From contig BROI01000015.1 in assembly GCA_027923505.1 (NCBI GenBank), positions 558,001-622,000 of the forward strand: a DNA stretch of 64,000 bases. Reading direction: 5' to 3'. Below are positions 4,468 to 64,000 of this stretch, piece after piece. The translations under genes and the position numbers were made by a program. The notes beneath the pieces are model-generated. The model saw only the letters and a program-made list of their open reading frames with translations. It was not told the origin of the DNA and ran no database searches. This DNA comes from Mayamaea pseudoterrestris. Taxonomy: Eukaryota. Each line of letters begins with the position of its first letter. Within the stretch, counting starts at the first letter, position 1.

Positions 4468-7400
4468 TTAGACGTCTTGCTGGTACGGCTTGATACGTCG
4501 AATATTAACTCGGTCAGTCACCATAGGCGAGAGGCGAATGGTAACCGTTCCATTAACGTGGACTTGTTCAATTGAATAAGGACCGATCCATCGTTCTTCG
4601 AGCTTGTTAGGGTCGTATACCTTCTTGAGGATCTGCTCGTCAACTTTAAAGTCATGAGTCAGTCTCGAACGGTTCGCTTGGAGCAAACGTTCATTGACAA
4701 TCGCTTCTCGTTTAACAGAGATAGCTAGAATGTCGGCAACCAAAGGTATATCCAGAAACATGTCGCGTTGAAAGACGACGGCGCCGGGAGAAAGGTTATC
4801 AAGAGCTCCACTTGATACAACTCGTGTTGCATGCATTGCTGTCGCGAGGCATTGATCGATTATATCGTCAGCTTCCATCAAATCCTCGGGCGGATGAGCG
4901 TGTACAAGTGTACGAAGCACGTTGCCAATAACGAGGTGACAGCGCTCGCAAATGCTGTTAGCAGTGGGCGTCTTGGCCGAAGCGGCATGCCATTCAATCC
5001 CATTGTGTTCAAGGATGGTTCCAAATGCTCCTTTAAACTCACTGCCTTGGTCGGCAACGAGTCGCATTGGTCGAGGATAGCGAGAGAGCCAGTTGTCTTC
5101 AAAGAGACGGCCGATATGATACGCCGACTTGTCCTGATAGCGAACAATTTCGACAAGGTTAGTAACTGGGTCAATCATCGTTAACGCTCTGAAATAACAG
5201 TCAATGCCGTTCACTGATACTTTCCATGGGCCGATGAGGTCAACGTGGACTTCATACCAAGGAGCGACGCGCACGTCTCTCGCTGGCAGCTCTCCATATT
5301 GGCGACTGCCTCCTTTGTTGCGTTGGCAAGTATCGCAAGCACCAACAAGATGCTCGACGCGCTGCTTGAGCTTAGGATGGTAAAAGTGCTGTTTGATGCT
5401 CGTTGTGAGGAGAGTCATTCCAGCGTGGGCCATTGAGAGGTGGTACCAAAGAATCAAGCGATCGAGGATCGCACTGGGGATGCAGATTCGCCAGCGTTCG
5501 TCTGCTTGGAATACAACAATCTGAACGTCTCCAAGTTGTTTGTATTGTATGGTTGTCGCGTCTTGGTTTTGGACTGCGGCCATTAGCGTTGCATCTTCTT
5601 GTTGATACTCTGCAATGGTTGAATACGACAGGGGATATCGCCCTTGTTCGTCGAACTCCGGATGGAGGAGCAGGCACTCTGCAAGCTCTGGTTCGTCCCG
5701 TAGGAGACAGTAACCTTCATTAGCAATTGATAGCTCTTCAATTTGCCTTTCCCCATGGTCGTTTGTTGTTGATTCAATTGAATGTGCAAGAACGCCGCCA
5801 TCGTGATGGCCATCGTTGACACCGTGTAAGTTGTCATCGTGATGGGTATGTCGCATGGGCACTGCTGCCTCTTGCGCTTCCTTTTGTCGGGCATCCTGTT
5901 GTTGCTTTAAAACATCAACAGGGCTCTCCCCCACTAGAGAGGTTTCCCTTGCCGTTGGAACCCTTGAAAGAGCATCTGCAACAGTGTTAAGCTCCCCTTT
6001 GAGATAAAGGAACTCGGGACCGAATTCCTCCAAGTACAGACGCCAGCGAAGGACGCGCTGCGTTTGGAAAGCGGTCAACTCGTGGGTGAGATTCTTATGA
6101 TCCGTATGGATTTGCAAGCGCGCACCAAGCAGCATCGAACGAAACGTTTTGAGCGTTTCAACAATACTTAGCAATTCCTTTTCAATGGTGGTATAATTGA
6201 CTTGGGCGCTGTTGAGCTTGCGCGAAAAGTAAGCGACCGGCACGCCATCTTGAAGGATGACGGCGCCGAGTTGATAATCAGACGCATCCGTTTTAATGAC
6301 GAATGGCTTGTTATGATCAGGATAACGAAGAAGAACATCGCTTGCTGCAACTGCTTTCATTTCTTCGAACGCCTTTTGTTGAGGCGCGCCCCATTGAAAG
6401 GACTTTTTGCCGACGAGATTCGTCAAAGGAGCAAGCATGTGCGACCGTCGCGGCCACATGGTTCGATAGTATGTAACAAGACCAAGGAATGAGCGCAACT
6501 GCTTGAGATTAGTAGGAGGCTTCATATCCACAATTGCTTGGACTTTCTTGGGCCAGGGTTTGAGTCCTGTCGGCGTGAGCCAGTACCCAAGCCAGTCGGT
6601 TTCCTTGACGCCCCATTCGCACTTGCTTGGATTGATTGTAAAGCCGCTATCCTCGAGTCGCTTTAAAACAGACTCTAACAGCGTTAAATGCTCCTTCCAA
6701 GTGTCGCTAAAGCAGCCGACGTCATCAAGGTACTTTTCAACGTCGCGCAACCCTTGTAAAACCTTCTCCATCACCTCTTGAGCAATATCGGGGGCTTGAT
6801 TGACGCCCATTGGCAAACGCAAGTATCGAAACAAACCGAACGGCGTTGCAATTGTACAGAGCTCGCTGCTTTCCTTGTCCAACTGGAAGGTATAATACTG
6901 CATTGAAATATCAAGCTTGGTAAAGAACTTGTATCCGCTGCGCCTCGCCAGCAGTTCATGGATCCGCGGCATCGGGAACGTGCGCCTCTTGATTACTTTG
7001 TTCAATGCTCTAAAGTCAGAGACAAAGCGTACAGTCTTGTCCTTCTTTGGTATAATAAAGGTGGGCGCCGCCCATTCGCTGCGGCCGCAAGGCTCAAGTA
7101 CACCGAGTTCGACGAGTCGATCGAGCTCTTCCTTGAAGGTTTGCTCATGCACTCGAGGCACTGGATAATGTCTTTTATGAACTGGTTTAGCTTGTGGATC
7201 AATGTCAATGTGGACTAGCTCGTGTGGGTATTTGCCAAGCTTGCCTGAAAAGAGAGCGGGAAAGCGTCGTAAGAGACGTTTTAAATCGGTACGTTGCTCC
7301 TCATTTAAATGAGTTGATTGATCGGCAACCTCGTCTGTCGACACTTTGTTATACTTAGCTGATAAAATCTCCTCGCTTGTATGCAGGTCTGGTTCAGTAT

Positions 7401-7953
7401 CAGAGAATAGAACAAACCGCTCAATCAAAGAGTCTCTGATTTGTTTTGGCCGATTGCTCAAATCCTCCATCGTCACCATTGGAGTCGATTGATTACCCCA
7501 ATTGATTTGTTTGTCTCCAAAGTCAATGGTCAATCCGAGCGCCGTTAAGACGTCTCGCCCCAGCAGCATGTCGTATCTGATATCCTGTTGGAAGACTCGC
7601 ACGGGGAAGTTGCCGATCCTTTTTGAAGTGCTAAACTCGGGAAGGAACGACTCGGCAAAATCAATCTTGGTAGAGCTTTCCAGTTTGCCAACTGCAGTTT
7701 GTGATATTAAACGTGGCGCTTTGCACTGAGGCAATCCATGTGCCGCTCTTTGGCTAATCCAACTTGTCGAGGCTCCTGAGTCGCAAAGGGCGGTAAGCGT
7801 GCGTTTGCAACGACTGCCATTAGCTTTACCAACGACCATAAGTACAACAGGAATGTAATCCGTAACTTTGTCGCTAGTAGCTTGTTGATTAACTTCGTCC
7901 GCTACAAGAGCGTCTTCCGTCGCACTGGCTGCCGCTGAGACCGCCGCCGTATC
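4468..7953 (-). CDS. pol: Retrotransposon Pol (aspartic protease, RT, RNase H, integrase)
   Basis: Protease LCDSGAS; RT KLDISMQY and YLDD; RNase H TDASDYQLGAVI; integrase HHCC (HLSMAH...CDTC), D-D-E (VHVDLIG, ADQGSEF, ICERCH) and GPY motif. The frame is open from 7953, directly after the gag stop. Confidence 0.95.
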   Translation of the reverse strand, partial: DTAAVSAAASATEDALVADEVNQQATSDKVTDYIPVVLMVVGKANGSRCKRTLTALCDSGASTSWISQRAAHGLPQCKAPRLISQTAVGKLESSTKIDFAESFLPEFSTSKRIGNFPVRVFQQDIRYDMLLGRDVLTALGLTIDFGDKQINWGNQSTPMVTMEDLSNRPKQIRDSLIERFVLFSDTEPDLHTSEEILSAKYNKVSTDEVADQSTHLNEEQRTDLKRLLRRFPALFSGKLGKYPHELVHIDIDPQAKPVHKRHYPVPRVHEQTFKEELDRLVELGVLEPCGRSEWAAPTFIIPKKDKTVRFVSDFRALNKVIKRRTFPMPRIHELLARRSGYKFFTKLDISMQYYTFQLDKESSELCTIATPFGLFRYLRLPMGVNQAPDIAQEVMEKVLQGLRDVEKYLDDVGCFSDTWKEHLTLLESVLKRLEDSGFTINPSKCEWGVKETDWLGYWLTPTGLKPWPKKVQAIVDMKPPTNLKQLRSFLGLVTYYRTMWPRRSHMLAPLTNLVGKKSFQWGAPQQKAFEEMKAVAASDVLLRYPDHNKPFVIKTDASDYQLGAVILQDGVPVAYFSRKLNSAQVNYTTIEKELLSIVETLKTFRSMLLGARLQIHTDHKNLTHELTAFQTQRVLRWRLYLEEFGPEFLYLKGELNTVADALSRVPTARETSLVGESPVDVLKQQQDARQKEAQEAAVPMRHTHHDDNLHGVNDGHHDGGVLAHSIESTTNDHGERQIEELSIANEGYCLLRDEPELAECLLLHPEFDEQGRYPLSYSTIAEYQQEDATLMAAVQNQDATTIQYKQLGDVQIVVFQADERWRICIPSAILDRLILWYHLSMAHAGMTLLTTSIKQHFYHPKLKQRVEHLVGACDTCQRNKGGSRQYGELPARDVRVAPWYEVHVDLIGPWKVSVNGIDCYFRALTMIDPVTNLVEIVRYQDKSAYHIGRLFEDNWLSRYPRPMRLVADQGSEFKGAFGTILEHNGIEWHAASAKTPTANSICERCHLVIGNVLRTLVHAHPPEDLMEADDIIDQCLATAMHATRVVSSGALDNLSPGAVVFQRDMFLDIPLVADILAISVKREAIVNERLLQANRSRLTHDFKVDEQILKKVYDPNKLEERWIGPYSIEQVHVNGTVTIRLSPMVTDRVNIRRIKPYQQDV

Positions 7954-37869: not shown

Positions 37870-39492
37870 ATGGCGTCCAGCGACGGCCGCCCTATCATGG
37901 GACGCTCAACTACCTCCCACGGCAACTCCCTTCGCCCTCGGGCGACTTCAGAGATGTGCTGCAATCTCTGCCGCAAGCCGTTCACGACGACCATCTTTGT
38001 TCTCGCGTGCGACTGCGCGTTTTGTGAAGGTACGTGCGTCCATGGCCGACAACGATTCCGATCGAGCCGTCATTGCGCGACTACAGCTTGCTTGTCAATG
38101 TTAATAAGCGAGAGCAATGTATTTGGCTGGATAATCTTGTGCAGATGTGTCGTTTCTGGCGTGAATTGCATTGCCAATCATTCAGATGCTGTCATCCTCG
38201 CTCGGTTCGCTCGTCTGATATCCATGTCATTGCTGCGCCGCCGCTTTCATCTTTGCACGGCTACTATGCATTTGAACAATTCTTGGCGCCTTTACGAGAT
38301 CTTGTTGAGACTGTTCCTTCGATCGGCCTTGAGACGTTGCAGTCTTCTCCGCCTTTCCTCTTTCCGAGCGAACGCTATACCTCGAATCGTTCCGACAGCA
38401 ATGAGATTGACTGCCGCCTTTTACTAATGCCGCCGCCTTTATTCTATTCTTTTAGAATGCACCTACGATCATTTCACGAAATATTCGGACTGTCCTACAT
38501 GCAAGAAAGTCTTGACGAAGGCGGACTTTGCGGAGTTTCAGGTAGCGGAGCCGTCGGCCACTTCGGAGGCCAATTACAAGAATTGCATGCAGTTCATCTT
38601 TACCAAGCGAGCCTCCGGAGGCAAAGGGCTTACCAATGTTGACGCGTGCTCTCGCGCTCTCAAACAGATTGATTCGAATACGCGCGCTGTCAAGTTCCTT
38701 TTCCGTCAGTTCACGAAGGAGAAAACGAACGACCAGCTGAAGATTGATTCGATGAAGCACGAGAATCACACTCTCAAGGAGGAGCTCACGCACCACAAGA
38801 CGCTTTTGCATACCCATCAGCAGGACGCGGATCATAAGCTTGCCGATATGCAGACTCAGTTGGCGAATACAACCATGGCGCTCCAGGAGCAGAAGAAACA
38901 AAATGCTCAGCTTCGCGAGATGTATGCCAAGAAATGTGACGACTTGCCTCCAGCGTCGTCTCATACTCACGGGTCCGGAGGACGACGCGGCCCGTCGAGC
39001 CACTCCAGTCAGCAGCAGCAGCAATTCGGGACGCAGGTGCAGCCGACGCAGGGCCATTCACGTCAGCAGCACCGTTCGAACCAGCATCAAGTGCAGCCAC
39101 AGTTTGCTCCTCACCATCGCAACCCGCAGCAGCAGCAGCCTCAGCCTCCGATGCGGAACATGGCTCCTCGCGTCTCTCTTGGCGTCAATACTGTCCGTCC
39201 TGTTTCTGCCGCTACGCGCAACGGATACGAGCCGTTCACGCCAATCCAGGTGCCGCCTCAGTATCGCTCGACTGGGTCCGGAGGGTCGACTGGTTCCGCT
39301 CACTCTCGCACTAGCAGCAACGGCGGAGGACGTATGCATGATTCCCGCGAGCAGTATGCCTTCCACGGTGGCGCTCCAGGCGGCGGCGGCAGCAAGTACT
39401 CGTCAGGATCGGGATTTACTCCAAGCAGTCGCTTCCAGACCGGTGCAAGCTTTGGCAGCAACCAAAGTTACGCTTCCTTTGGACAGCGCTAA
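37870..39492 (+). CDS. RING + coiled-coil protein, HEI10/RNF212-like; intron 38030-38455
   Basis: Spliced RING CNLC-x-CDCAFCEEC-x-CPTCKKVL, then a coiled coil and a Q/S/G-rich disordered tail. Confidence 0.65.
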
Positions 39493-40256
39493 ACACTCAC
39501 ACGCCTCTAAATCGCTCTGCGATTTCAAGTATTGTGCTTTTGGTCGCTCTTTGAACCTGCACGAAAATACTTTGCGTCCTTTCTCTACCTCTCTGGCAGA
39601 TTTGTCGTCTGCCGTGCACGTCCAAGCCCTCCATCAAGCTCTTGACATTCGAGTCAAACACATGTCTACTTCAACTGGCGAGGTGTAGACTGTATTGAAT
39701 GAATGTACATAGATAGCTCAAATTAAAGTGAAACGATATTGATAAAATGTCATTTAGGCTCGTAGTACCTGAGCTGGAAGCAGCGACAGACTCATGTCGT
39801 CGCTATTACTGATACCATGAACTTGGGCAATCAACGTCTCAGTAAATACCGGCACACGCAAGCCTCGCTTGCGCTCGATGTATAGCGATGTTGATTCTCT
39901 TTGTGGAGAGAGATAAGGGAAAATTGTTAGCTAACCACCTTCATGCGTCCAGCGGCGAGAAACACGACTCAACATAAAGAGTCATGGTGCGACAAATGGC
40001 ACACTCGGAACCGCGCGACTATCGAGCTCGTCACCATGAAACAATCGGCTCACGACGAGGCCTTTTTCGCTAGCTTGTACCTCCTTTAGACCGTTGAAGT
40101 AAACTGATCGAATTAAGCGTGTGATACTAGGAGAAGCGATCAGTTTTGATCAAATCGCACCAACACACAAGTCGCCCAAACTCGAATCGTCGACAACCGA
40201 CAACGCCATTGCCGTGCAAAATCAAGTATCCATCGGCACCTGAACGAGGAAAGTAA

Positions 40257-43200
40257 ATGTCTCATCAGCAAAATATTCACCAGGACGGAGCTTCAGACTC
40301 GTTTGGGCATTTGGCTGTGAATCACGTGCATTGTCACCATTTGGAGGATGACCCAGCGGAAGCTCTCTTGTCTCCGGCAACACCCTTGAGCATTTCACCA
40401 AACACGCCAGCGTATGCTACTTTGCCTGCTTCTGCTTCAGCTGAATCTCACGATCATCATGGTTCCACATCGCCGTGGATTCCTCCCGTTGCGCCTGCCG
40501 TCCTGGTGGTGGAGGAGCGCGGCAATGATGGCGACGGAGACGACTCTTCGGCCAACTCGAACCGCTCCGGCCGATATGCCTACCCAGTGGCTACCTTTGT
40601 GCGAGACTTGGTACGAACGGGCATGGAGAATGTGCACAACGTTCGCATCGCCGCGAGTGCTCATGCTACAGATGTTGCAGTCAATACGGGGCGAACGGCA
40701 AACCATTTAATGCTCAATGCCATGCAGAGCGAGCCTGCACTTTATTCAGGATCGTCTCAACATTCTGCCATGCCTGTCACTGCATATTCCGCACGAGACT
40801 TTAATATGCCAATGGCTCTCAATGACGATGCTGAATTTATTCTCGTTGACGGAGACTTGATTGCCATTCCTCCGCCGCCAAACGCCATGGAACAGGAAGG
40901 CATTGAGGCTATGCTGCACCAGCAGTCGGGTGCGAATCGGGCATGCCGGCCGACAAGGTTTCGCAGAGGGGTACGCAAGCTCAACAAGCTCTTTCGGCGA
41001 AAAAGAGAGGATAAGGAGCGTTTGGCACTGCCGCCGCAGGAGATTGAAGCAATCACGTCATCATTGTCGACGGCGACAATGACGAGTGACGCGGCTATTG
41101 TTCCTACTGTAACGTCAATTACGCAAAGTGAAAGCAACCAGTCGGATGCTGCGAACATCAACCCTATTTCGAGAAGGCAAGCCGGGGCCTCAATTGGAGA
41201 TCCTTCACCGACGACGTCGACCGCTTCGTCAGTGCAATCGAAGAAGAATCGAAAAAAGATGCTAACTTGGCGACAACCTCAGCAGCCACTGTCCGAAACT
41301 ACTCGGGAAGGTGCTGACTTTAGGCATGAACAATTTGCAAACGCGGCGGCGTCTACTTCTGGTCTCTCTCCGTTCTTGTCAGAGACTCCTTTTGCTAATG
41401 GCTCTGCGAACGTAGCGAGCGCTGCATATGGGACTGCCACGGCTAGTTTTGTTGGGACTGCAGATCAATTGCTAGAGGCAGATGTGTTGGGTGCGTCGAT
41501 GTCGGCGGAAGCGTACGTTGAATTTGATGATCCCTATTCGAAAAAGGATGAAGGCTCTAGCAGTCAACTAATGAGCTTGGTTCCTCGCGACGCCGACTAC
41601 AAGGTTGACAAGGCGGATGCTTTGGATGTTGAATCCATGCTACGCCGAGCAGCATATGAAACAACGAATGACATTGACATGTTTGAGCCGACCACTCCTC
41701 TACTGAAGCGACAGCTAACTGGAAAAACAACTGGATCGTCAATTCCACTGAGCCTTTCGTGTGCCCAAGACGATTCATCGCATGTCCATAATGACATGCT
41801 GAAGGTAGTAATGGTCGGTTGTCTGTTCGAGAAGACGTGGCTTGCACGAGCAATTCGAGACACTGCTAAGCGACCGCGTAAACGATCGACACTTGGAGTT
41901 GACGTCCATACTTGGTCCCCGGCGGACTCTGAAGGCGATCCTATAAAGTTAAGCATTTGGGATGTACAGGGTACCACAAGCACACTCGATGGATGTCCAA
42001 ACTTTGGAGGCCACCCCGCGACTCAGTCGTTGTTTTTCTCAGGCCAAACGCTGTACATCTTGGTGTACGACCTAGCAATCAATAATCCAAAGACGCAGGC
42101 AAAGAGACCAGTAGAGTTTGATTATGATGACGAGGATGACGACTATGACGACGAATTTGTGCAGGAAGAAGCCGATCGGCGTGCTGATCGTGCCCTACAG
42201 GCTGACATTCAAAGTCGCGTTCTAAGTTGGGTGCAGTCTATTGCAAAACGCGGGCCAAAATCCGCCATTCTTCCCGTAGCAGTGGTACCTGAATCAATGA
42301 ATATTGATGAAGCGAGACGGCGGAGTATTGTAATGCAGAGTCTTATTGAAGAGTATGTTGATCGCATTGCTGGCGACGCAGACGCGCCCAAGCTTCTTAC
42401 AGGTGAGGAGGATGTTCTTTGCGTTCGATACTCGGATGGTCAAGGCATTGAACAATTGCGAGAAATGATTTACGCAATTGCTACCGACAAGACACAGAGT
42501 GTATTCGAACATGTGGGAACGCCGGTTCCAGCCGGCACGGCACAAGTGTATGATATGATTCGCCGACTTAAGCAGGACCATAAGCTTATTCTCGTTGACC
42601 ATCTCTTCGGTGAGGTGGATAAGTTTTTAGACTTTGACGGACTTGTTCGCATTTTAGAGTTTCTCGACAGCATTGGCGAGATTCTTTATTATTCGACCGG
42701 CGATGAAGTTCTGTCGCGGTATGTCATTTTATCACGAAAATGGTTGGTATCGGCACTGTCTTGCATTCTCCGCAACGATTTGAACCGGGAGTTGGAAGAA
42801 ACGAGGCGATTTATGAACATGCAATGCTTGTATTCCAGTCACAAATTCCAAGAAAATGATATTGTTAAAATGCTTGCCAGTGGCACGACTTCCAGCTGCC
42901 CCTTATTGAGTGACAGCGATGCTAACATGCTTTGGCAGTCAATGAGTTTTATGAGGGAGGCGGCGGATCACTACTCGCAGCTCGATGAGAACAGTACAAC
43001 AGCTCCGTCAATGTTCTATTTTCTTGAGAGACTCTTGGTACATAGCGGAATCTTCGTACCGCTTGGGATAAACCAAGCTTCTCTTGACAAATCTGAGGTC
43101 TTTTTCGTTCCAAGCATCTTGGCGCAAGTTGATGCTCGCGACATCTGGAGTTTTAAGTCAAGTGACAGCTGGATGTGTGTGCTCAGCAACTCATGGCTGT

Positions 43201-44744
43201 TTCGTCAAGGAGCACCGTCAAACTTGATGGAAATTTTGTCAGTAGACCTTTTGAAAGGACTGTTTTCGTTTTCCAAATCATTCCAGCCCATCTGTCGTCC
43301 TCAGGCACCCAAACGCGCGAAGACGGTTCCTATTCGCGGTCCATCATTTCATGAATTTTACGAGGATCATGACGATCAGATTGTTGGACGCGTTAGAATA
43401 CATCAGATCATGTGCTGGCAAACATCAATGCTCGTCAAGATCGGAACAGTATTTGCCGATAAAGAGTCTGACCAGCTTCGCGAAAGTTTTGTTGAAATTC
43501 TTGTGACGGTGGTTGACCAGACTTCCAACATTTGCGTTGCCTCTGATGCGATGCGCTCTGGAATGCATCGAGTAATTGTCAGTGGGAAGGGACAGGTTGG
43601 TCACCATGGTCGAAAGCTTTGGGAAGGTGGATACCAGGTTGTTTTGGACTCGATTCGATCGACTCTTGAAAGCTATGCTAACGTTGATGCCCAGATAGTT
43701 TGCCCAGAGTGCCTCGCCCATTCGTTACCGCACAGTGCCTGTACGTGGAGCCAAGACAGCGTTTTGGCCGTCGCTGAAGGCGGAAGTGCTTTGGTGCGTT
43801 GCATGCGAGGACATCGCGTTGACAGCAATCTCATTTGTGGAAGGTGCAGGGATCACTCAGCAGCAGTCACTCCACTCGACGCAGCTGGGATCCGCCACGC
43901 GAAACCAGTTTCCGATATGCTTGCGAGTGTTGTTCTTGTGGGCCTGTATGACCCTCATTCTAAATGTATCGCAAGCGTTGGGTCTGGCTTTATCGTCGAT
44001 CGTAAGCATGGTCTCATTGTGACTGCTGGTCATGTCGTCTTCGACATGGAAGGCAGGCATTTTGGAACGAAGTATTTTGGAATAAAAGACGCCAAGGTAG
44101 TAATTGGACTTTGCAGCGAGGTCGGCGACAATGCAGTTTTTAGATACTTTGCGGAGGTTGTTGCGGATGATATTCACAATGTTGATGCAACAGTGCTTCA
44201 AATTTATTCTCGAATGGAAAATGATGTCGACGATGATGGACCGGGCTGTGCTGGTCAGTCTGAACGAAAGCTTGGTCTCCCAGCCATGCAGGACGAAACT
44301 CTACGATCGCTAAAGCTTACCACTCGTTACGAGCTTGAGGAGGCGGTTCGAATTCTCGGTTTTAATCAAGGAGGCGAAGGAATATTTGAAAAAGGCAAGC
44401 ATATAAACCGCTCGTTCGATTTTGCTAAGGGATACGTTTGCAAGATTTTCAGGGCCTCCATGTCCGACGATAGCAGCCATAGCTCAGATTCGAGTTCTCA
44501 TTGCACCTTTACGCCACGGGAAGAAATTGTTGTTATGTGTCCTACCATTTCTGGTCACAGCGGAGGTCCTTGTGTGAACGATGATGGCAAAGTGGTTGGC
44601 ATCTTAAGTCGAGCTGACCCTGTCGATCGACAGCGATGCTATATTGTCCCAGCTAACGAGATCAAGGGGCTTGTGGCCAAAGCTCGTACACATGTGATGA
44701 GATCAGCTGCTAGCAATCAAGCCTCGTTGTCGAAGTCAATTTGA
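40257..44744 (+). CDS. ROCO-family protein: disordered N-terminus, degenerate Roc, COR, Zn module, trypsin-like serine protease
   Basis: Roc: LKVVMVG..EKTWLAR, STLGVDV, IWDVQG, TQSLFFS...LYILVYDL. COR: YVILSRKWLVSAL, FFVPSIL. Zn: CPEC...VRCMRGH. Protease: GSGF, TAGHVV, VDAT, GHSGGP. Confidence 0.85.
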   Translation: MSHQQNIHQDGASDSFGHLAVNHVHCHHLEDDPAEALLSPATPLSISPNTPAYATLPASASAESHDHHGSTSPWIPPVAPAVLVVEERGNDGDGDDSSANSNRSGRYAYPVATFVRDLVRTGMENVHNVRIAASAHATDVAVNTGRTANHLMLNAMQSEPALYSGSSQHSAMPVTAYSARDFNMPMALNDDAEFILVDGDLIAIPPPPNAMEQEGIEAMLHQQSGANRACRPTRFRRGVRKLNKLFRRKREDKERLALPPQEIEAITSSLSTATMTSDAAIVPTVTSITQSESNQSDAANINPISRRQAGASIGDPSPTTSTASSVQSKKNRKKMLTWRQPQQPLSETTREGADFRHEQFANAAASTSGLSPFLSETPFANGSANVASAAYGTATASFVGTADQLLEADVLGASMSAEAYVEFDDPYSKKDEGSSSQLMSLVPRDADYKVDKADALDVESMLRRAAYETTNDIDMFEPTTPLLKRQLTGKTTGSSIPLSLSCAQDDSSHVHNDMLKVVMVGCLFEKTWLARAIRDTAKRPRKRSTLGVDVHTWSPADSEGDPIKLSIWDVQGTTSTLDGCPNFGGHPATQSLFFSGQTLYILVYDLAINNPKTQAKRPVEFDYDDEDDDYDDEFVQEEADRRADRALQADIQSRVLSWVQSIAKRGPKSAILPVAVVPESMNIDEARRRSIVMQSLIEEYVDRIAGDADAPKLLTGEEDVLCVRYSDGQGIEQLREMIYAIATDKTQSVFEHVGTPVPAGTAQVYDMIRRLKQDHKLILVDHLFGEVDKFLDFDGLVRILEFLDSIGEILYYSTGDEVLSRYVILSRKWLVSALSCILRNDLNRELEETRRFMNMQCLYSSHKFQENDIVKMLASGTTSSCPLLSDSDANMLWQSMSFMREAADHYSQLDENSTTAPSMFYFLERLLVHSGIFVPLGINQASLDKSEVFFVPSILAQVDARDIWSFKSSDSWMCVLSNSWLFRQGAPSNLMEILSVDLLKGLFSFSKSFQPICRPQAPKRAKTVPIRGPSFHEFYEDHDDQIVGRVRIHQIMCWQTSMLVKIGTVFADKESDQLRESFVEILVTVVDQTSNICVASDAMRSGMHRVIVSGKGQVGHHGRKLWEGGYQVVLDSIRSTLESYANVDAQIVCPECLAHSLPHSACTWSQDSVLAVAEGGSALVRCMRGHRVDSNLICGRCRDHSAAVTPLDAAGIRHAKPVSDMLASVVLVGLYDPHSKCIASVGSGFIVDRKHGLIVTAGHVVFDMEGRHFGTKYFGIKDAKVVIGLCSEVGDNAVFRYFAEVVADDIHNVDATVLQIYSRMENDVDDDGPGCAGQSERKLGLPAMQDETLRSLKLTTRYELEEAVRILGFNQGGEGIFEKGKHINRSFDFAKGYVCKIFRASMSDDSSHSSDSSSHCTFTPREEIVVMCPTISGHSGGPCVNDDGKVVGILSRADPVDRQRCYIVPANEIKGLVAKARTHVMRSAASNQASLSKSI

Positions 44745-45189
44745 TAGCTGAGAGGACATGCTTAAAAAAATACCACACGGAGTGCTTGATACCCAACGAA
44801 GCGACACCCGTCCATCGCTGCAGAAGCTGCCGGCCCCGGCAGCAGTAGCATATATATCTGTACCAGTAAAAGCACCAGTCGAGCAAAAATATCACCTCTC
44901 AGCTATTTAAATTCGTGCATTGCATTCGTATGCCCGAAGCTCTTTTCTAATGCCAAGTCCGCCTCATAAAGTGCGCAATGCCCCAATACTAATCTACAGT
45001 ACTCGGACCATAGTCTTGCTTTAAACTAATTCATTTGTTTAACGAGTCCGGTTTTGGTCCCGTAATGCAATTGGAAAAGGGATTCACCCTATACCGGTGG
45101 GATAATGTCGTGCCGCGCCGACGCGGTGGGACGCACGAATGCCAATCATCCTCATTTTTTTTCTTCCATCGTCGAGCAAGAGGCTCATC

Positions 45190-47130
45190 ATGCTACGACG
45201 GGCATGGAACAAGCACAAGCCTCACGATGACGATGATTTAACATTATCACCAACGAAACAAGATGTGAGTCATGCAAGTAACGGTGAACCAACGAATATG
45301 GCGACGATGACGAGTGACTCGCTGCTGCAGCATGACGACGAACATGCCGATGAATGCACGCGCAAGGGAACAATATGGCAATGCTGGAGATTGCTACTGC
45401 AGCGCGCACTTCGACCAAGTAACTATAAGCTCCAAAAAGAGTACAAGTCCATGTGTCGTTGTTTTGTCTTGGTCGTTTGCCTAGCAATCATTGCTCTTTT
45501 TCATTCATCGATTCTTCGACAACGGCTACTGCAGCTTGGAGAAGATTCCCTTCTGAGGCCATTGCTGTCGATTCATATTCAGCCATCTAGTATAATGGAA
45601 ACGAAGGACTCATTGGAGACTGGAAAGTTTTGCCTGCCCAAGCATGGCATGTGGAAGTGCTACGACTGTGGCAAAGACGACAATGAGAAGAATGACAAAC
45701 ACACGCAATCCAAAATGGCGATAACAGCTACTACAAGTAGCAGCAGCAGCAGCACTCAAACATGGCATCGCAAGCCAAAGAGGGAACGCTGCAAGAAACT
45801 ACAACCCCGCGGCAAATGCAAACCCTTTTTGATTCCACGTCGAGACGTTCCAGTGCGAGTTCGCCCGTCACCGTACGACGGCACCAGTCGCTCGACACAG
45901 TCAACGCGCACGCTGGGATTGCGGCCACGGTTCTTCTACGAGCAGCAACCCACTTGCGCGACTCTGGATGATTGCTGGGATTTGAGTCGTTGCATGCAGC
46001 TGCTGACAGAAAACGATAGCGACATGCCCGTTCTGACAGTCTACTTGAATGAAACTGACAAGCAGCACTATTTGCTTGACTACTTGACGAGACAAGCAGT
46101 AGCCAACTCGTCACTATCGTCCTTTCGACTGGAGCGAGTCAATGATCACTCCAAAGCTTGCTTGGTCTTGGTCACGCCACAAACATACGAGACTGCCAAT
46201 GACCTTTTATCATCGGAGCATTGGCGACACACGTACCGCCGCAAGCATCGCCACCACCAACACGGAACGAACCATTTGTTGTGGCACACCTCCTACTTTT
46301 TCCTGAACGACACCAAAACGATTGACTTGCCGTTTTCGCTCTCGTGGCACGCCGCGCACGCCGCTTTGGCCAGCGCCTCCTTGGATCGCGCCAGTCACCG
46401 ACCAAACTACGACATGGTGCTGCCACTGCCGCGCATGTGGGGACGAGCGGAGGCGCCGCAGTTGGTGCTGGACAATGTGCGACAGTCGCAGCAACGACGT
46501 AAGTGGCTACTGGGGTTTCGCGGCAAGATTCAGGCGACGCCGCACGTTTACTACCATCATCGTTGGCTGGCGGCGGAGTATTGGTTAAACGACGAACATG
46601 AAGACAACGACATTATCGTGGACGTCAAGTGCCAGCGCGAGCAACTACCTTCAGGTCGCAAAGTGGTTGAAAAGGACTACGACAACCAGTTTAGTTACGC
46701 CAACTTTTTATGGGACACATACTTTGGATTTGCTCCTGGAGGATCTGGCGTTGGATCATTTCGGTTTGGCGAAATCTTGTCGACCGGAGGCATTCCCGTC
46801 ATCTTGCCCGACTATGTGCCTCCCTTTGCACCAGAAGTGGACTGGTCCGAATGCGTCATTGTGGTGAGCGAGGCGCGCATCATTGACTTGCCAAACATAT
46901 TGCGAAGAATACCGTTGCATGAAGTAACGCGGCGACAAGAGGCTTGCTGGAAGCTCCTCCAAGTGACACTTGGTGATACAACGAACGGCATGTTTCTCGG
47001 CAAGAAAAAAGAAGCTGGCCTTTGGCACGACGATGAGCGAGTGACCTTTCGTCTCGCCATGGAACTTTGGGTTGCGCGCATTGTCAACGCTATGACAATG
47101 AAACAACGCGTGGAACGTCTCGTAGGTTAA
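45190..47130 (+). CDS. Exostosin-family glycosyltransferase (GT47), type II membrane
   Basis: N-terminal TM helix; RKWLLGFRG, FGFAPGGSG..SFRFGEILSTGGIPVI and PFAPEVDWSEC. Confidence 0.88.
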   Translation: MLRRAWNKHKPHDDDDLTLSPTKQDVSHASNGEPTNMATMTSDSLLQHDDEHADECTRKGTIWQCWRLLLQRALRPSNYKLQKEYKSMCRCFVLVVCLAIIALFHSSILRQRLLQLGEDSLLRPLLSIHIQPSSIMETKDSLETGKFCLPKHGMWKCYDCGKDDNEKNDKHTQSKMAITATTSSSSSSTQTWHRKPKRERCKKLQPRGKCKPFLIPRRDVPVRVRPSPYDGTSRSTQSTRTLGLRPRFFYEQQPTCATLDDCWDLSRCMQLLTENDSDMPVLTVYLNETDKQHYLLDYLTRQAVANSSLSSFRLERVNDHSKACLVLVTPQTYETANDLLSSEHWRHTYRRKHRHHQHGTNHLLWHTSYFFLNDTKTIDLPFSLSWHAAHAALASASLDRASHRPNYDMVLPLPRMWGRAEAPQLVLDNVRQSQQRRKWLLGFRGKIQATPHVYYHHRWLAAEYWLNDEHEDNDIIVDVKCQREQLPSGRKVVEKDYDNQFSYANFLWDTYFGFAPGGSGVGSFRFGEILSTGGIPVILPDYVPPFAPEVDWSECVIVVSEARIIDLPNILRRIPLHEVTRRQEACWKLLQVTLGDTTNGMFLGKKKEAGLWHDDERVTFRLAMELWVARIVNAMTMKQRVERLVG

Positions 47131-47814
47131 GAAGAGACTCATAACATTTTTGTTTGTTTTTGCCATAGTTGCTGCAGTGTAGCTCGCTGGTTGCGTAGGA
47201 CGCAGACGAGTTGAAAGGCCGCCTCATCATTGCCGATACTGACATCATCTTGCAGCGCTCCATGCACGGCAAGTTTGGTCGTTGGCATGTTTGCCTTGTA
47301 TATTGCCGCCGTCATCGATGCACAACGACAGTAGCTTGTCGGACCTGCCTAATCGGGTCACACTCATCGTCTTCGTCACCCATAATAATTGGATACCGGT
47401 CCTCGTCACTGTATAGTTTGTTGGAAGCATTGTCAACTTCGTCACAGTCTTCACTAGTCGCGACATTGTCTTCGTATTATCAACTTCCTCCTCCTCCTTG
47501 TCGTCATCTTCGTCAAATTTCACCAGACAATGGAACAGTCCATTCGTTGCGCGTGCGGTCCACAACACTCGCCTGCAGCACATTGGAACTGAAGTCGCGA
47601 TAGTAAAAGGCCAAGTCATACAAGGCTGGTGAGAAAAAAATACTTGGTGATTGATTAAGCTGCAGCGGTATCCGAGCCCCGCTACACCGACGACGCGACA
47701 GACACGCTCCTGGAATATCGTGCAAGTGCACGAACGAACTTTGATATGGGTCCACCATGTAGGTTGTTCATTCTTGAATAATTTCTGGTCACAAAACTTT
47801 ACTGTATCGCTCCT

Positions 47815-50800
47815 TCATATGGTCCACCGTGCCCCAAGCTCGTCCATTGTCGGTATAAAAGCAATGATCGCAGCAATTGCCGTTGATTTCGCTCGTCGCG
47901 AGAGCAGAAAATGCACTGCTCGTTCACAGGCCAAAGCTCTGACAAAAATTGCGTTTCGATTCTGCGCAGACGCAATGGCATTGTCAAACGCACTCAAGAC
48001 CTTGCTCACATCAACAGCCGGCGACTTGTAAGCCAGATACTGCGCGCGCAGCAAGGCAGAATAGTGGTGGCAATTGTTGTACCCTTGTTTTAAGTAGCCA
48101 TCAAGCTTTCGAATCATTGATTCAGCCTTGCTGCGGTAGCGCTTGCTCGTTGTTGTTTGTTTTGTAGCCAACGAAAGAGCAATCATTCCCAAGAGGAAGA
48201 CTACCGGAGGCAAATCGTCCTGTTCTTTGCTTGGGCTGGTTTCCATCATTTCTAAAAGCTTGTCAAATAGGCCTTGCATTACTCCATGGTCGTCGTACAT
48301 GAAAGCGGACACCACCCGGCATAGTAGAATGTTTTTCGTAACTTTCGTCGAACCAACTATGTCGTCGAGGCTCTTGATGCCTTTCACACTCGTCAGGGAC
48401 ACTTTCCCATTCTCTACCAAGCACTTAGTGAGATCTACAAAGGGGGCGACGACGGGAATAAGACACTCGTAGTTGTGGTCGTGCAGCAAAACCAGTAGTT
48501 CACCAAAATTGTTTTCAAGGTCGGCAAGGTAAGATCCGACAAAAAACATGGACCAGAAAGAATGAACATAGTTCGCAACAATGCACGATGGGAGAAAATC
48601 GGTAGATTGTAATTGTAAATACGACTGGCGTAAACTGTTCGTCGAGTGGTCACCTTCGGTACTAAACCAAAGCGAAATACCCGAGGTAACCACACTCGCA
48701 CGACCATCGAACAACACGTGTCGTCCATCTTTCGCCAACGCAAGCCCATAAGTTACGAATCGCTTCGCCTCGTTTACCTTGCCGAAGTCCTTAAGCAAGG
48801 ATCCCCAGTAAACGAAGCATAGTGAGCTGAGCGAATAATGCGGACCGTTATCAAGAATCGCTTGGAAGGCCCGCAAGACTGCCATTTCGTGATAAATGCA
48901 GCCCTTTAACATTGTGCATTCGACTAGACGTTCAAGAAGATCCATCCGGTCTTTAAGTTTAGAATTTGTTTTTGTCGGTGTTGCTTTCCAAACATCCCAA
49001 TCAAACCTTGAAAGTCGTTTCTCGATATCGCTCATCTGTTTTTTGAGCTGAACAGCCAAAAAGTTTGTCGGAAAAAGCTCGCCGAGCTCATTCAATTCAT
49101 TGATTATAAATGTCACTGCCTCGCTCAAGTTATATCTTTTCATCATAATCGATATTCGCGTATGGACCGCCACCTTCTTGTCTCCGTAAGCTTTAGCATG
49201 ACGGATCACCTCGGTGCAGCTCTCATTGCTGTGCTTCAAATGCCCGCACTCCAATTCTGCAACCGCCAGCTTTGTTTCAAGAGACCTTCTCCACGACAGA
49301 TTGGTCTGCCAAGATGAGGGACCAAGACAAGCAATCGCACTTCTCAAAAACTCGGCCATAGCGAAAGAATCACCATCTTTCAAGCAGATGTCTGCAGCGC
49401 GAGTGTTCAGTTCAGCTAAATCTTTCGCCAACGAAGTGAGGGATAAATCATTGTCTGGTTTCAATAAACATTTCTGCCGAGCCTCTATTCCGATGTTCAG
49501 ATGATACATTGCGCGATTTAATATGCAACTAGATTCTCTGCTTTGCGGTGGAAGCACCTTGATACGGACTAGGTAAAAGCGTTGCAATCGACGACCGACT
49601 TGCCACTGCAGGTCCATCATCTTCCCTGTCGTTGCCAAGGCGTCCATCACTGTGTCTCTAACCGTATTATCGAATGCAAAAATGGAACCATGCGTATTCG
49701 TCAGCAAACCTCGTGCACAAGCATAAAGAAGCTGTTGCTGAACTGACTGGACCGGCTGCCGAACCAAAAAGGCAATCGAATCTGCCCCAAATAAAGGCAA
49801 ATACACTGCTGCCACCTGCAGCAAGATTTGAACAGACTCAGGCAACGCTGAAAACTGTAGCTTCACCAAGTGCCGCAAGACAGCCGCGTCGTCGCCACGG
49901 CGTGAAGGTGATTGGGCCAAGTCGCTAGCCTCGTCAATTGCATCAAGTCGCGGGACAGGGATCGAAGAGATACTCAAGGCTGTCTTGTAATTCATCTCTC
50001 TTGCAACTCGTAGCAGTGCTAGTACACTTCCAATATGGCCATTGGTTCGCGTGTAAACGACTTGTGCGACATTGTCGGGGCATACACCATCTTTCCAGGT
50101 AGGATCAGTCTGAACGACCAGAGACACGTTACTGTAAGACCAGTTCGGCAGACGCTTCATATGCGTCCCACTTTGCTTCTGATGCAGTAGCCAGGCCGCC
50201 AAGGCATCTGAATAGTTGAGAACATTTCGGCATACTGCTATAATTGCGAGCGGCTTGTCCGAAAATGCTACTTGAACGCGCTGAATGAATGCTCGCGCGT
50301 GTGGGGTAGCATATTGTAGATCGTCAATGATGAGAACAAGTAAGGGTGCCACGGCAGATGCCGATTTGTTTATTGCTTCATGACGCTGCTTCTCAACTCG
50401 TCGAAGAACCCAGCGAAGTAGTTGCAACATGGCGCCGTCAGTTTGATCGATGCTCCGCATGGTAGACGACATGGCATGTATCAGATCCCCTTCGTCGTCA
50501 GACCCATTTCGCAATGTTATATGCGGCTGGAGCAATTGGATGACTGACTGTGAAAGGCCTGAAAGCTCATTCCGAAGATTGCTTCGTATAAATACATCAA
50601 GTCCTCTCCAAAACGCCGAATAAGGGTGCGAAATCTTGTCATGGGCCACCAAGCTTACCCTGATGCAAAATTTCTCTTGCATTGACAGCTCGTGCAAGAA
50701 ACGAGTCTTTCCAGAAGCTTCTGAACCCTGGATAATCACTGATATCGCTTTGGCTGGTCCTGTCGTTTGCTGTCGGACTAATTCTTGAATCGCTTTCATA

Positions 50801-51024
50801 AACTTGGTCCGACCAACAAATGTCGAATCAATTTGGTTGTTTTTCTTATCATGCGCCAAATCTAGTCCATCACTATAGCATATTGACCTTGTAAGCGCGC
50901 TATGGTCTGAACCCGTAATGCTCAAGTCTTCCGAGGACGTTGTCGACGTACGCGTTCGATTTGTTGATGCAGAGTTGTCCAAACAGTTCAGCTTCTCAAG
51001 CGATGACCTTGCTGGTTCGCACAT
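47815..51024 (-). CDS. STAND-class AAA ATPase with a helical/TPR-like C-terminus (COG3899-like); 3' end probably frameshifted
   Basis: FVGR, Walker A GSEASGKT, PYSAF, Walker B LVLIIDDLQYA, RTNGH, LQVAA and C-terminal RALACERA. Confidence 0.8.
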   Translation of the reverse strand: MCEPARSSLEKLNCLDNSASTNRTRTSTTSSEDLSITGSDHSALTRSICYSDGLDLAHDKKNNQIDSTFVGRTKFMKAIQELVRQQTTGPAKAISVIIQGSEASGKTRFLHELSMQEKFCIRVSLVAHDKISHPYSAFWRGLDVFIRSNLRNELSGLSQSVIQLLQPHITLRNGSDDEGDLIHAMSSTMRSIDQTDGAMLQLLRWVLRRVEKQRHEAINKSASAVAPLLVLIIDDLQYATPHARAFIQRVQVAFSDKPLAIIAVCRNVLNYSDALAAWLLHQKQSGTHMKRLPNWSYSNVSLVVQTDPTWKDGVCPDNVAQVVYTRTNGHIGSVLALLRVAREMNYKTALSISSIPVPRLDAIDEASDLAQSPSRRGDDAAVLRHLVKLQFSALPESVQILLQVAAVYLPLFGADSIAFLVRQPVQSVQQQLLYACARGLLTNTHGSIFAFDNTVRDTVMDALATTGKMMDLQWQVGRRLQRFYLVRIKVLPPQSRESSCILNRAMYHLNIGIEARQKCLLKPDNDLSLTSLAKDLAELNTRAADICLKDGDSFAMAEFLRSAIACLGPSSWQTNLSWRRSLETKLAVAELECGHLKHSNESCTEVIRHAKAYGDKKVAVHTRISIMMKRYNLSEAVTFIINELNELGELFPTNFLAVQLKKQMSDIEKRLSRFDWDVWKATPTKTNSKLKDRMDLLERLVECTMLKGCIYHEMAVLRAFQAILDNGPHYSLSSLCFVYWGSLLKDFGKVNEAKRFVTYGLALAKDGRHVLFDGRASVVTSGISLWFSTEGDHSTNSLRQSYLQLQSTDFLPSCIVANYVHSFWSMFFVGSYLADLENNFGELLVLLHDHNYECLIPVVAPFVDLTKCLVENGKVSLTSVKGIKSLDDIVGSTKVTKNILLCRVVSAFMYDDHGVMQGLFDKLLEMMETSPSKEQDDLPPVVFLLGMIALSLATKQTTTSKRYRSKAESMIRKLDGYLKQGYNNCHHYSALLRAQYLAYKSPAVDVSKVLSAFDNAIASAQNRNAIFVRALACERAVHFLLSRRAKSTAIAAIIAFIPTMDELGARWTI

Positions 51025-62699: not shown

Positions 62700-63793
62700 G
62701 GTATAGTGTTAATGTAACGGAGAGAAGCTGTCGAGGTGAATATGAGAGAAAATTTCTTTTCGCGCAACAATTCTTTGATGGCAAGCTAATCAACACCAAG
62801 ATACGTGAGTGTAATCGAGACAAATATTGGGTTTGCCCCTCCGAGGCATCAACACGAACGAAAGTGTCGGCTTTGACACTCATCTTTGAAGGCATCAACA
62901 CTCGTGCGCGCCTTGGCATCGGCATCAATGACGATGCACCTCGTTGATGGCGAGGTTCGTCGCGACCGTCAGTCGTGCTTTCCTTGCCGGTCATTGATTG
63001 ATAAAGACTTAGTTATACCCTACGAACTTTATGACGTAGATCCGGAAATATGTCACATAAGGTTCAAGATATTATTCTATCGCACCGGTACTTACAGTTC
63101 CGAGAAACTGCTTGCAACACGCGGCATTATCGAGCCCCTTCTGCTTCCATTGGCCATGAGCATGCTCGCATGAACGACGATACAATAGACAATAAGGCTA
63201 CTCACCAGAATATGAGCTACTCAACTCCTCGTCCCATTCACAATCTGCATCGAGAAATTAGGTCAACGCCGGATGAAGCAGAGCCGACTTACAGCTTTGA
63301 AAGGGAATCCTTTCTCCTTGCGTCACCCGAACTCGAAAAGGAGGATGAGTTTCACCGGAGATTGCAGCATGCTACCCATAAGACAACTGGAGGTGGCGGC
63401 GGCGGAAATGTTAATGCAGCAAACACAGCAATCAATAGCGGCGGTGGAAGTTTTTGGAGAAGCAGCAGCGCCGAGTCGTCGCAACCTTTGTTTACTAGTG
63501 CTGTGCAGCACACACCTACTCGCACTAGCAACAACACTGTTAACATCGAAACAAAAAAGAGTAAGAGTGCTGGACTCTTGTCTGCGGCTCTTTTAGATGG
63601 CAATTTTAAAAATAATAATGATCATGGAAGCATGTCAACGGTGCGTAGAAGAAAGGGGAACAGAAATTTTCTGTTCGCAAGCTTCATTCCTCATTCGATT
63701 ACTTTTTTGTCACCTTTGCAGCCAACTCCGTTCATAGCAAATCAAAGTCCTGAGCAGCATCATACCTATCGTCGGAACGATTCATCGGTTTCG

Positions 63794-64000
63794 ATGAGTA
63801 GCGCTTCGTCCAGGGGCGACAAGAAGGGAGTCACAAAGCAACGACTTTCTGATCGACGAAACAAGCTGGATGCGCTTTCGAATGAATTTGATATGGGACA
63901 TATCATTGACGAAGACTTGGAACACGTCAACCATGAAGGGAATGAGCATGTAATGCAGCTACCGAATTTTGCAGAGATTAGTCCAGTCAGTGTTCCGCTG
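63794..64000 (+). CDS. Partial CDS running off the right edge
   Basis: MSSASSRGDKKG...SPVSVPL is open to the window end; may have an upstream exon (candidate acceptor at about 63721). Confidence 0.5.
   Translation, partial: MSSASSRGDKKGVTKQRLSDRRNKLDALSNEFDMGHIIDEDLEHVNHEGNEHVMQLPNFAEISPVSVPL

Follow-up and report, generated by a model that had tools for sequence, protein, structure and literature searches.

ROCO proteins have been studied almost entirely via members with a kinase output, such as LRRK2 and DAPK1, and the way in which Roc-COR controls its effector is still debated. According to the accessible text of Teng et al. 2024 (PMC11378527), brown algae contain three "group 3" ROCOs with a C-terminal peptidase (IPR009003), which are nested among other ROCOs of the SAR lineage (stramenopiles, alveolates, and Rhizaria) that also bear peptidase domains, and diatoms have at most four ROCOs per species; diatom ROCO proteins are also mentioned in the available part of Zambounis et al. 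2012 (PMC3341825). In bacteria, leucine-rich repeat (LRR)-AP-GTPase-COR proteins, as far as the accessible sections of Kaur, Iyer, Burroughs, and Aravind 2021 (PMC8195603) describe them, end in any of at least 24 alternative effector domains, trypsin among them, and are predicted conflict systems. The literature covered, to which subscription journals and bioRxiv supplements did not belong, yielded no experimental study of any ROCO-protease and no paper pairing "pseudoGTPase" with "Roco", and the word "protease" is absent from the accessible part of the ROCO review by Wauters 2019 (PMC6337361). Here, we analyzed a stretch of 64,000 nucleotides from the diatom Mayamaea pseudoterrestris (the window; contig BROI01000015.1, positions 558,001 to 622,000), in which one gene at 40257..44744 of the forward strand encodes a Roc-COR protein ending in a serine protease.

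The architecture, a ROCO protein with a C-terminal peptidase or trypsin, is already in print, uncharacterized, for brown algae and other SAR members and for bacteria, as reported in the accessible parts of PMC11378527 and PMC8195603. The first-pass annotation of this DNA, made from the sequence alone, knew of no characterized eukaryotic Roc-COR-trypsin protein; this hint of novelty falls for the architecture and holds insofar as no such protein is experimentally characterized in these sources. What we did not find in print is the LRR-less form with an eroded G-domain, its invariant Cys/His linker module, and the co-resident LRR-type paralogue. Like the brown-algal group 3 and SAR ROCOs, as the accessible text presents them, the diatom protein has Roc-COR followed by a PA-clan serine peptidase, belongs to the stramenopile lineage, and is uncharacterized. 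Group 3 has LRRs, whereas the diatom gene has no LRR, an eroded P-loop and G4 motif, and a disordered N-terminus of ~500 aa; the LRR feature, absent from the protein studied here, is present in an LRR-type paralogue in the window (P0253). This likeness to group 3 is by description only, and the supplementary trees of Teng et al. may already include diatom members. The bacterial LRR-AP-GTPase(Roc)-COR proteins likewise have Roc-COR and then a C-terminal effector, trypsin-like in some, but they are prokaryotic and LRR-bearing, and a search of prokaryote genomes with low sensitivity neither shows nor excludes common descent. Compared with LRRK2, LRRK1, MbRoco2, and CtRoco, the diatom protein has the same Roc, COR-A, and COR-B folds in the same order (Z 22.5-25.9 over 310-494 residues; profile E 6e-20 to 1e-11), with a Cys2-Cys-His (CCCH) module added after COR-B. 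In contrast to LRRK2 and LRRK1, its output is a protease instead of a kinase, LRR, ANK, ARM, and WD40 are missing, and the P-loop is non-canonical.

Our analysis confirms 40257..44744 as a genuine diatom gene in a single exon. Its product is a divergent member of the ROCO family, with proteolysis by an HtrA-like protease with an intact catalytic triad as its probable output. We also consider it likely, from the sequence motifs, that the Roc is a pseudo- or atypical GTPase domain and not a canonical GTP-binding timer. The gene consists of one open reading frame (ORF) of 1495 aa, uninterrupted over all 1495 codons, with the stop codon within the coordinates, and needs no intron, exactly as first claimed. 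In a tblastn search, residues 21-1582 of the orthologue P0002 matched window positions 40323-44714 in one high-scoring segment pair, colinear with the ORF, and Met1 is aligned in at least 90% of rows (n = 40 aligned relatives). Among the MMETSP entries marked "type:complete", P0030 carries Roc, COR-A, and Trypsin_2 on one transcript, and P0069 and P0077 each carry COR-A and Trypsin_2 on one transcript. The earlier proposal of one gene for one protein is sound, because the orthologues are colinear with the entire ORF and the MMETSP relatives join the domains on one transcript. The opposite explanation, an artefact, a pseudogene, or two adjacent genes read as one ORF, can draw on the fact that the single-transcript reading of this gene comes only from its uninterrupted ORF and orthologue colinearity. 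We rejected pseudogene and two-gene read-through in view of the intact 1495-codon ORF, the colinear full-length orthologues, the conserved catalytic and structural residues, the homologous single transcripts in MMETSP, and a structural model that packs the domains together, and this explanation is extremely improbable. In the contigs assembled from sequencing runs over 38000-47500, which are only short pieces from runs of unrecorded kind and hence do not bear on transcripts, their ends, or expression, no joint was reported inside the ORF; four runs from one study contain 60-79% of the sampled words, and no RNA run is among the runs that match.

A family profile made from a 58-sequence alignment and searched against PDB sequences matched LRRK2 with an E of 6.4e-20 in two stretches, one covering Roc and the other the end of Roc plus COR-A, followed by LRRK1 (8.9e-19), MbRoco2 of M. 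barkeri (4wnr, 8.4e-15), and CtRoco of C. tepidum (3dpu, 1.3e-11); the Roc stretch of LRRK2 by itself gave 7e-11. A search of PDB with the single sequence gave nothing significant (best E 0.068). The AlphaFold2 (AF2) model of residues 500-1495, calculated with the same 58 sequences, has a mean predicted local distance difference test score (pLDDT) of 84.8 and a predicted template modelling score (pTM) of 0.80; domain boundaries were taken from this model, whose numbering is the full-length numbering minus 499. With this model, Foldseek retrieved LRRK1 (2.2e-19), LRRK2, and CtRoco (6hlu, 2.7e-14), and the VIA structure alignment superimposed it on MbRoco2 RocCOR-deltaC (4wnr) with a Z of 25.9 and a root-mean-square deviation (rmsd) of 3.2 Å over 310/323 residues (model 6-456). 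The Roc G-domain spans residues 510-744 (41784..42488, +) by Pfam, family profile, and VIA structure alignment; apart from an acidic low-confidence insert at ~609-645, this part of the model is mostly above pLDDT 85. The Roc and COR blocks noticed at first are hence present by family profile (LRRK2, 6.4e-20) and by fold (4wnr, Z 25.9), but both stay below threshold in Pfam on the single sequence: Roc matches residues 525-609 with an E of 3.7e-4 and 21.2 bits (cut-off 27), and COR-A matches residues 797-847 with an E of 5.6e-6 and 26.8 bits (cut-off 35.3).

The P-loop of the Roc is degenerate and reads G521-C-L-F-E-K-T527 (41817..41837, +), in the context VMVGCLFEKT from residue 518 (window 41808); Glu525 takes the place of the Gly before the Lys, and relatives have a loop longer by one residue. 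A pattern scan found no canonical GxxxxGK[ST], the G1 signature, anywhere in the 1495-aa protein. Among 160 family rows with a detectable Roc, the P-loop is canonical in 22; K[ST] is preceded by Asp or Glu in 87 and by some other residue in 14, and it is missing from 37, seven of which are unaligned at this point; the residue before the P-loop Lys is Asp in 81 rows, Glu in 21, and Gly in 31. The G3/switch II motif DxxG is retained as D569-V-Q-G572 (41961..41972, +; WDVQG at residue 568, window 41958), the Gln of the "DFAGQ" in LRR-type proteins is replaced after it, and an insert, "NFGGHPATQSLFFS", comes next. At the G4-equivalent position, V676-V-P-E679 (42282..42293, +), the [ST]-x-x-D of the LRR-type paralogues, present in 13/13 of their rows, is not found, and of the 41 LRR-less rows, 11 end this motif in Asp, 9 in Glu, and 21 in another residue. 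This register was read by eye from the 58-row alignment, which is also how the "THLD" of LRRK2 was placed there, and the HMMER alignment to "THLD" is offset by two residues; in both registers the LRR-less clade has no conserved Asp. It should be added that the G4-G5 motifs vary among Rocs, according to the accessible text of the Wauters 2019 review (PMC6337361). The Pfam Roc score of 21.2 bits compares with 51.6-58.8 bits in eight LRR-type paralogues.

Because the P-loop is non-canonical, we file the protein as a homologous but divergent ROCO and not as a demonstrated GTPase. The Roc is probably not a canonical GTP timer, given the Glu in place of the P-loop Gly, the missing loop residue, and the eroded G4 [ST]xxD. 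If so, the atypical G-domain would be retained for structure, and Roc-COR would act as a scaffold or an allosteric, possibly dimerizing, regulator that holds or releases the protease. Instead of ligand sensing by LRRs, partner proteins or the short conserved elements in the disordered N-terminus would supply the input, and in the effector step Ser1435 would cleave cytosolic substrates. Several points weigh against this picture. The P-loop Lys is kept in 140/160 rows and the Ser/Thr in 128/160, and DxxG is kept family-wide (Asp in 137/160, Gly in 121/160); the retention of Lys-Ser/Thr and DxxG counts against a complete loss of phosphate binding. One nucleotide change suffices to turn Gly into Asp, and Gly is present in one crown member (P0029), so the site may still function in an altered way. 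The query keeps the acidic Glu679 at the G4 Asp position, and the regulatory role given to the N-terminus is pure inference. A FastTree tree (LG+gamma, 1034 columns, all 58 alignment rows, midpoint-rooted, no outgroup) bears on the order of events: the P-loops of the LRR clade are all canonical, and in the LRR-less clade canonical P-loops sit on basal branches (P0101, P0092, P0155, and P0167) and degenerate ones in the crown, except in P0029. We read this as a probable loss of the LRRs first and erosion of the P-loop afterwards, an order that depends on a midpoint root; this root is arbitrary without an outgroup, which is a further point on the same side.

The same residues bear on the idea of a bona fide GTP-regulated ROCO switch, in which COR dimerization would activate the proteases by proximity in a caspase-like manner as a trigger of defence or cell death. 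This GTP- or COR-driven switch was the mechanism proposed by the first-pass annotation, and it is doubtful here, given the change from Gly to Glu, the shortened loop, and the V-V-P-E at G4. Roc-COR homology and fold are as expected from such a switch, and so are the family-wide P-loop Lys, Ser/Thr, and DxxG and the Glu679 at the G4 Asp position. The accessible text of the Wauters 2019 review (PMC6337361) describes LRRK2 as largely dimeric and COR-B as the surface through which CtRoco dimerizes, and the bacterial LRR-AP-GTPase-COR-trypsin proteins are predicted conflict effectors in the available sections of PMC8195603, both of which speak for it. The missing invariant Gly, the loss of [ST]xxD, the sub-threshold Pfam Roc, and the absence of an LRR sensor speak against it; moreover, the orthologues look one-per-genome and are conserved at 50-75% identity, unlike receptors that diversify fast. 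Furthermore, among solved structures the protease domain is related to those of the HtrA/DegP type, and proteases of this type are known to work as trimers or larger cages, not dimers. Taken together, we regard a canonical GTP switch as rather unlikely.

COR-A (residues 754-955; 42516..43121, +) is helical and was placed by Pfam, by VIA against MbRoco2 (residues 505-955), and by the LRRK2 profile alignment. COR-B (residues 956-1139; 43122..43673, +), placed by VIA against LRRK1 and LRRK2, consists of a β-sheet and helices, with a low-confidence loop at 1011-1029. The model aligns with LRRK1 (8e05_A) with a Z of 23.7 over 494 residues (model 9-700) and with LRRK2 (8fo9_A) with a Z of 22.5 over 492 residues (model 10-700 against LRRK2 1329-1867). 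COR-A and COR-B thus lie directly C-terminal of Roc, the arrangement that defines the ROCO family. Between COR-B and the protease, residues 1142-1199 (43680..43853, +) form the Cys2-Cys-His module, a putative zinc site with the pattern C-x2-C-x29-C-x3-H (C1149, C1152, C1182, and H1186; CPEC at residue 1149, window 43701) and a pLDDT of 87-95. These four residues are invariant in 58/58 rows of the 58-sequence alignment. In the 224 rows that cover the C-terminal part, drawn from 244 family proteins, they are conserved, gaps aside, in 206/206, 206/206, 205/206, and 206/208 rows, respectively. The module had been described earlier as CPEC...C..GH...CxxC; the first four residues stand, and the last CxxC is not conserved. 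We predict that the module binds zinc.

The protease domain occupies residues 1218-1465 (43908..44651, +) and was identified as an HtrA/DegP-like serine protease by Pfam, by VIA, and by its conserved triad. Pfam Trypsin_2 covers residues 1242-1449 with an E of 7.1e-15 and 56.4 bits, above the cut-off of 27.6. The S1 protease with intact His, Asp, and Ser that was first noticed is fully borne out, with TAGHVV at residue 1256 (window 44022), VDAT at 1309 (44181), and GHSGGP at 1433 (44553). In the family alignment, the triad residues are His1259 (44031-44033), Asp1310 (44184-44186), and Ser1435 (44559-44561), all on the forward strand, conserved in 210/216, 210/211, and 202/206 non-gap rows, respectively, with Arg at the His position in five rows. 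VIA aligned model residues 712-981 with DegP (3otp_C; Z 23.4, rmsd 2.8 Å, 195 residues) and also matched DegS, HtrA1, and MamO; the family profile matched HtrA1 in PDB (3.8e-8), and Foldseek matched MarP Rv3671c (3lt3; 1.7e-12, TM 0.72 on the target) as well as DegP, DegS, and HtrA1. Two loop inserts of the domain have low confidence in the AF2 model. A C-terminal helix (residues 1466-1492, model H967-993; 44652..44732, +) follows in the AF2 model with no PDZ after it, and the protein ends ~30 residues past the protease domain. One or more C-terminal PDZ domains are a defining feature of the HtrA (MEROPS S1C) proteases. In the NCBIfam library, only far-sub-threshold matches appeared (MarP 32.9 against 250; DegP 25.7 against 416). 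We therefore describe an HtrA-like protease domain and not a member of the HtrA family, because there is no PDZ and the NCBIfam models score far below their cut-offs. Compared with HtrA, DegP, DegS, DegQ, and MarP, the domain has the same chymotrypsin fold, His-Asp-Ser triad, and G-x-S-G-G motif (Z 21.5-23.4, rmsd 2.3-3.0 Å, ~190 residues), but no PDZ, signal peptide, or membrane anchor was found in the diatom protein, and the Roc-COR regulatory module is located N-terminal of it. A PADLOC search gave a weak likeness of the protease domain to RT-Protease_XI (3.7e-6) and of the LRR-type protein P0108 to LeoA (4.3e-7), and no system was assigned.

With DegP, DegQ, DegS, and HtrA1 as the closest protease folds, the protein could also be a constitutive HtrA-like quality-control protease, in which a fossil Roc-COR would serve as an oligomerization platform with no role in signalling or defence. 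Conserved orthologues across pennate and some centric diatoms, together with the eroded GTPase motifs, fit such a housekeeping enzyme. However, conservation of Roc and COR equals that of the protease, and the CCCH module does not vary, which argues for more than a passive fossil. A PDZ for substrate or peptide sensing is missing, and the sister clades bear LRR, WWE, and U-box sensor or adaptor domains typical of regulated systems. A purely constitutive enzyme is quite improbable on this evidence.

Residues 1-505 (40257..41771, +) form a mostly disordered N-terminal region in the AF2 model, with no Pfam match. The AF2 model of residues 1-600, made with 40 aligned sequences, has a mean pLDDT of 52.9, with 329/600 residues below 50, in line with the ~510 aa of disorder described at first. 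Only a few short elements are conserved: PPVAPA at ~76-81, YPVATFV at ~109-115, and the region 396-500. Identity among 28 orthologues is 0.12-0.30 in residues 1-400, 0.43-0.45 in 401-500, and 0.36-0.73 beyond. The sole confident fold lies at residues 190-226, where the AF2 model and the consensus give a β-hairpin and a helix (E193-197, E200-204, and H210-226; conserved "EFxLxDGDLVAIP"); residues 190-225 are the only stretch of 1-500 with a pLDDT above 80 (blocks of 84-86). A basic helix (H242-255, conserved "RMRRGVRK") comes after it, and the two elements together correspond to 40824..41021 (+). Pfam on the whole protein at E <= 1 detected no LRR, kinase, or PDZ. The lack of LRR and kinase reported earlier is accordingly true of this gene; for LRR it does not extend to the system in this genome, in which the LRR-bearing P0253 begins 18.4 kb downstream. 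Upstream LRR exons hidden from the gene model were also considered and rejected, as the colinearity of the orthologues starts at about residue 21, at least 90% of rows align with Met1, and the N-terminus is disordered.

The start of this LRR-type ROCO-protease gene (P0253, 1827 aa) was located by ORF identity at 63170..64000 (+), where it runs off the window end. The ORF at 63170-64000, open at its 3' end, agrees with residues 1-249 of P0253 at every position (249/249) except for one gap of 27 codons; the gap (81 nt, in frame, ~63641-63721) is presumably an intron in the P0253 gene model. Since this identity places P0253 in the window, the genome carries both an LRR-type and an LRR-less ROCO-protease. 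P0253 starts 18.4 kb downstream of the LRR-less gene; both are encoded on one strand, and five unrelated ORFs separate them. P0253 was found as a match of the LRR-type P0108 used as query; in its precomputed Pfam annotation it has LRR, Roc, Ras, COR-A, and Trypsin_2, and its motifs are canonical (P-loop GMAMMGKT, DFAGQ). A tblastn search of the window with family members showed no further paralogue and missed 63170-64000, because only the non-conserved N-terminus of P0253 lies in the window. The LRR-type paralogues (P0253, P0108, and P0248, the last an N. inconspicua protein named "Miro domain containing protein") have the same Roc-COR-CCCH-protease core, with the triad and the CCCH module, and, unlike the query, they have N-terminal LRRs, GMAM[TAMV]GKT, DFAGQ, and [ST]xxD (13/13 rows). 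From COR-A to the C-terminus, the LRR-less protein and the LRR-type paralogue are 38.9% identical over 718 aa. Among the matches listed, both types occur by name in Nitzschia inconspicua, Bacillariaceae sp. SGILL, and Cylindrotheca fusiformis, as well as in Nitzschia sp. Nitz4 and Epithemia clementina, and the LRR type also occurs in Thalassiosira, Skeletonema, Chaetoceros, and Odontella. The linkage of the two types is not general, because they lie on contigs of different length in N. inconspicua and E. clementina.

By analogy, the LRR-less protein with its eroded P-loop could partner the GTP-competent LRR-type paralogue, for example through COR-COR hetero-association, as a helper, decoy, or substrate. 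The presence of both types in this genome, on one strand and 18.4 kb from each other, and by name in five other taxa among the matches listed, would suit such a partnership, as would the 38.9% identity of their COR-to-protease parts and the eroded STAND modules paired with active ones in bacteria that the accessible text of Kaur et al. 2021 (PMC8195603) describes. The unconserved linkage in N. inconspicua and E. clementina and the five unrelated ORFs between the genes here count against it, and we take the partnership to be improbable. A bolder version, in which an LRR-bearing, GTP-competent sensor and an LRR-less pseudo-GTPase partner associate via COR and fire their proteases in a cell-death or antiviral response, is a long shot. 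If true, this two-component system would be a ROCO-based analogue of paired sensor/helper nucleotide-binding LRR receptors and possibly a protease pathway behind the collapse of diatom blooms, and through its WWE and U-box domains a third clade would link it to ADP-ribose and ubiquitin signalling. Whichever function applies to the divergent ROCO-protease described here, the two paralogues form a natural comparison set: the same Roc-COR core is joined to a protease in both, one keeps the GTPase motifs and LRRs, and its sister in the same genome has lost both. Such a pair permits a direct test of Roc-COR with and without nucleotide cycling. For diatom biology, the gene is a candidate regulated cytosolic protease in a group with a poorly defined machinery for cell death under stress or virus infection; its value is tempered by the fact that the architecture has already been catalogued in silico.

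We further examined the spread of the family. A word-indexed search with residues 500-1495 recovered 153 proteins at E <= 1e-3 among 6095 candidates, the best with 74% identity, and a HMMER scan of a library of 50%-identity representatives recovered 447 proteins at E <= 1e-3, 348 at <= 1e-10, and 219 at <= 1e-30. The named sources among the matches listed are all diatoms (Seminavis robusta, Nitzschia, Epithemia, Cylindrotheca, Pseudo-nitzschia, and Odontella), and no brown-algal sequence is among the best 120 matches listed in either homologue search. A search of a protein cluster atlas gave one cluster of 70 members, with Trypsin_2 in 100% and Roc in 26%. Pfam analysis of 34 more distant members showed Trypsin_2 in 34/34, LRR families in 8/34, each with a Roc of 51.6-58.8 bits, and WWE and/or U-box N-termini in 7/34 (P0182, P0183, P0195, P0203, P0204, P0209, and P0214). 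The constant unit is Roc-COR-CCCH-protease, and the variable N-terminus is LRR, WWE/U-box, or disordered. Arg replaces the catalytic His in three of the four U-box-type rows of the 58-sequence alignment; the WWE/U-box members P0182, P0204, and P0209 show this change, and in them the P-loop Lys is replaced as well (..MGTT..). One Seminavis robusta member, P0019, carries the public name [quoted passage not shown] and has Trypsin_2, Roc, and COR-A in Pfam; the name is probably a mis-annotation or comes from a merged gene model. In prokaryote genomes, two protease peptide patterns, a search of low sensitivity, gave 46 matches and no confirmed relative.

The window DNA is eukaryotic nuclear in look, with ~49% GC. 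The neighbouring genes encode a class I aminoacyl-tRNA synthetase, an Alg9 mannosyltransferase, an exostosin (GT47), exocyst Sec10, a SpoU methylase, and a Ty3/Gypsy-type pol ORF. The pol ORF (4468-7839, -; 1123 aa) is open and uninterrupted, contains an aspartyl protease, reverse transcriptase, RNase H, integrase zinc-binding, and integrase core domains, and looks like a retrotransposon copy. The ORF at 47815-51024 (-; 1069 aa), 3 kb from the ROCO gene, has an N-terminal AAA_16 ATPase as its sole recognized domain (E 1.7e-7, 32.3 bits against a cut-off of 32.6) and may be a STAND-like NTPase. Upstream of the ROCO gene, two ORFs without a Pfam match are located at 37870-38427 (+), with a Cys-rich N-terminus (C-x2-C ... 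C-x-C-x3-C), and at 38512-39492 (+), Gln/Ser-rich and coiled-coil-like; they may be exons of a single RING-like coiled-coil gene. Both are outside the ROCO gene, because they are in another frame and the orthologues stop short of this region. Over 40200-45700, the contigs from four sequencing runs differ at many single bases, in identity classes of 95-99%, and 144 further single-base differences occur beyond those listed for this interval, which fits allelic or strain variation.

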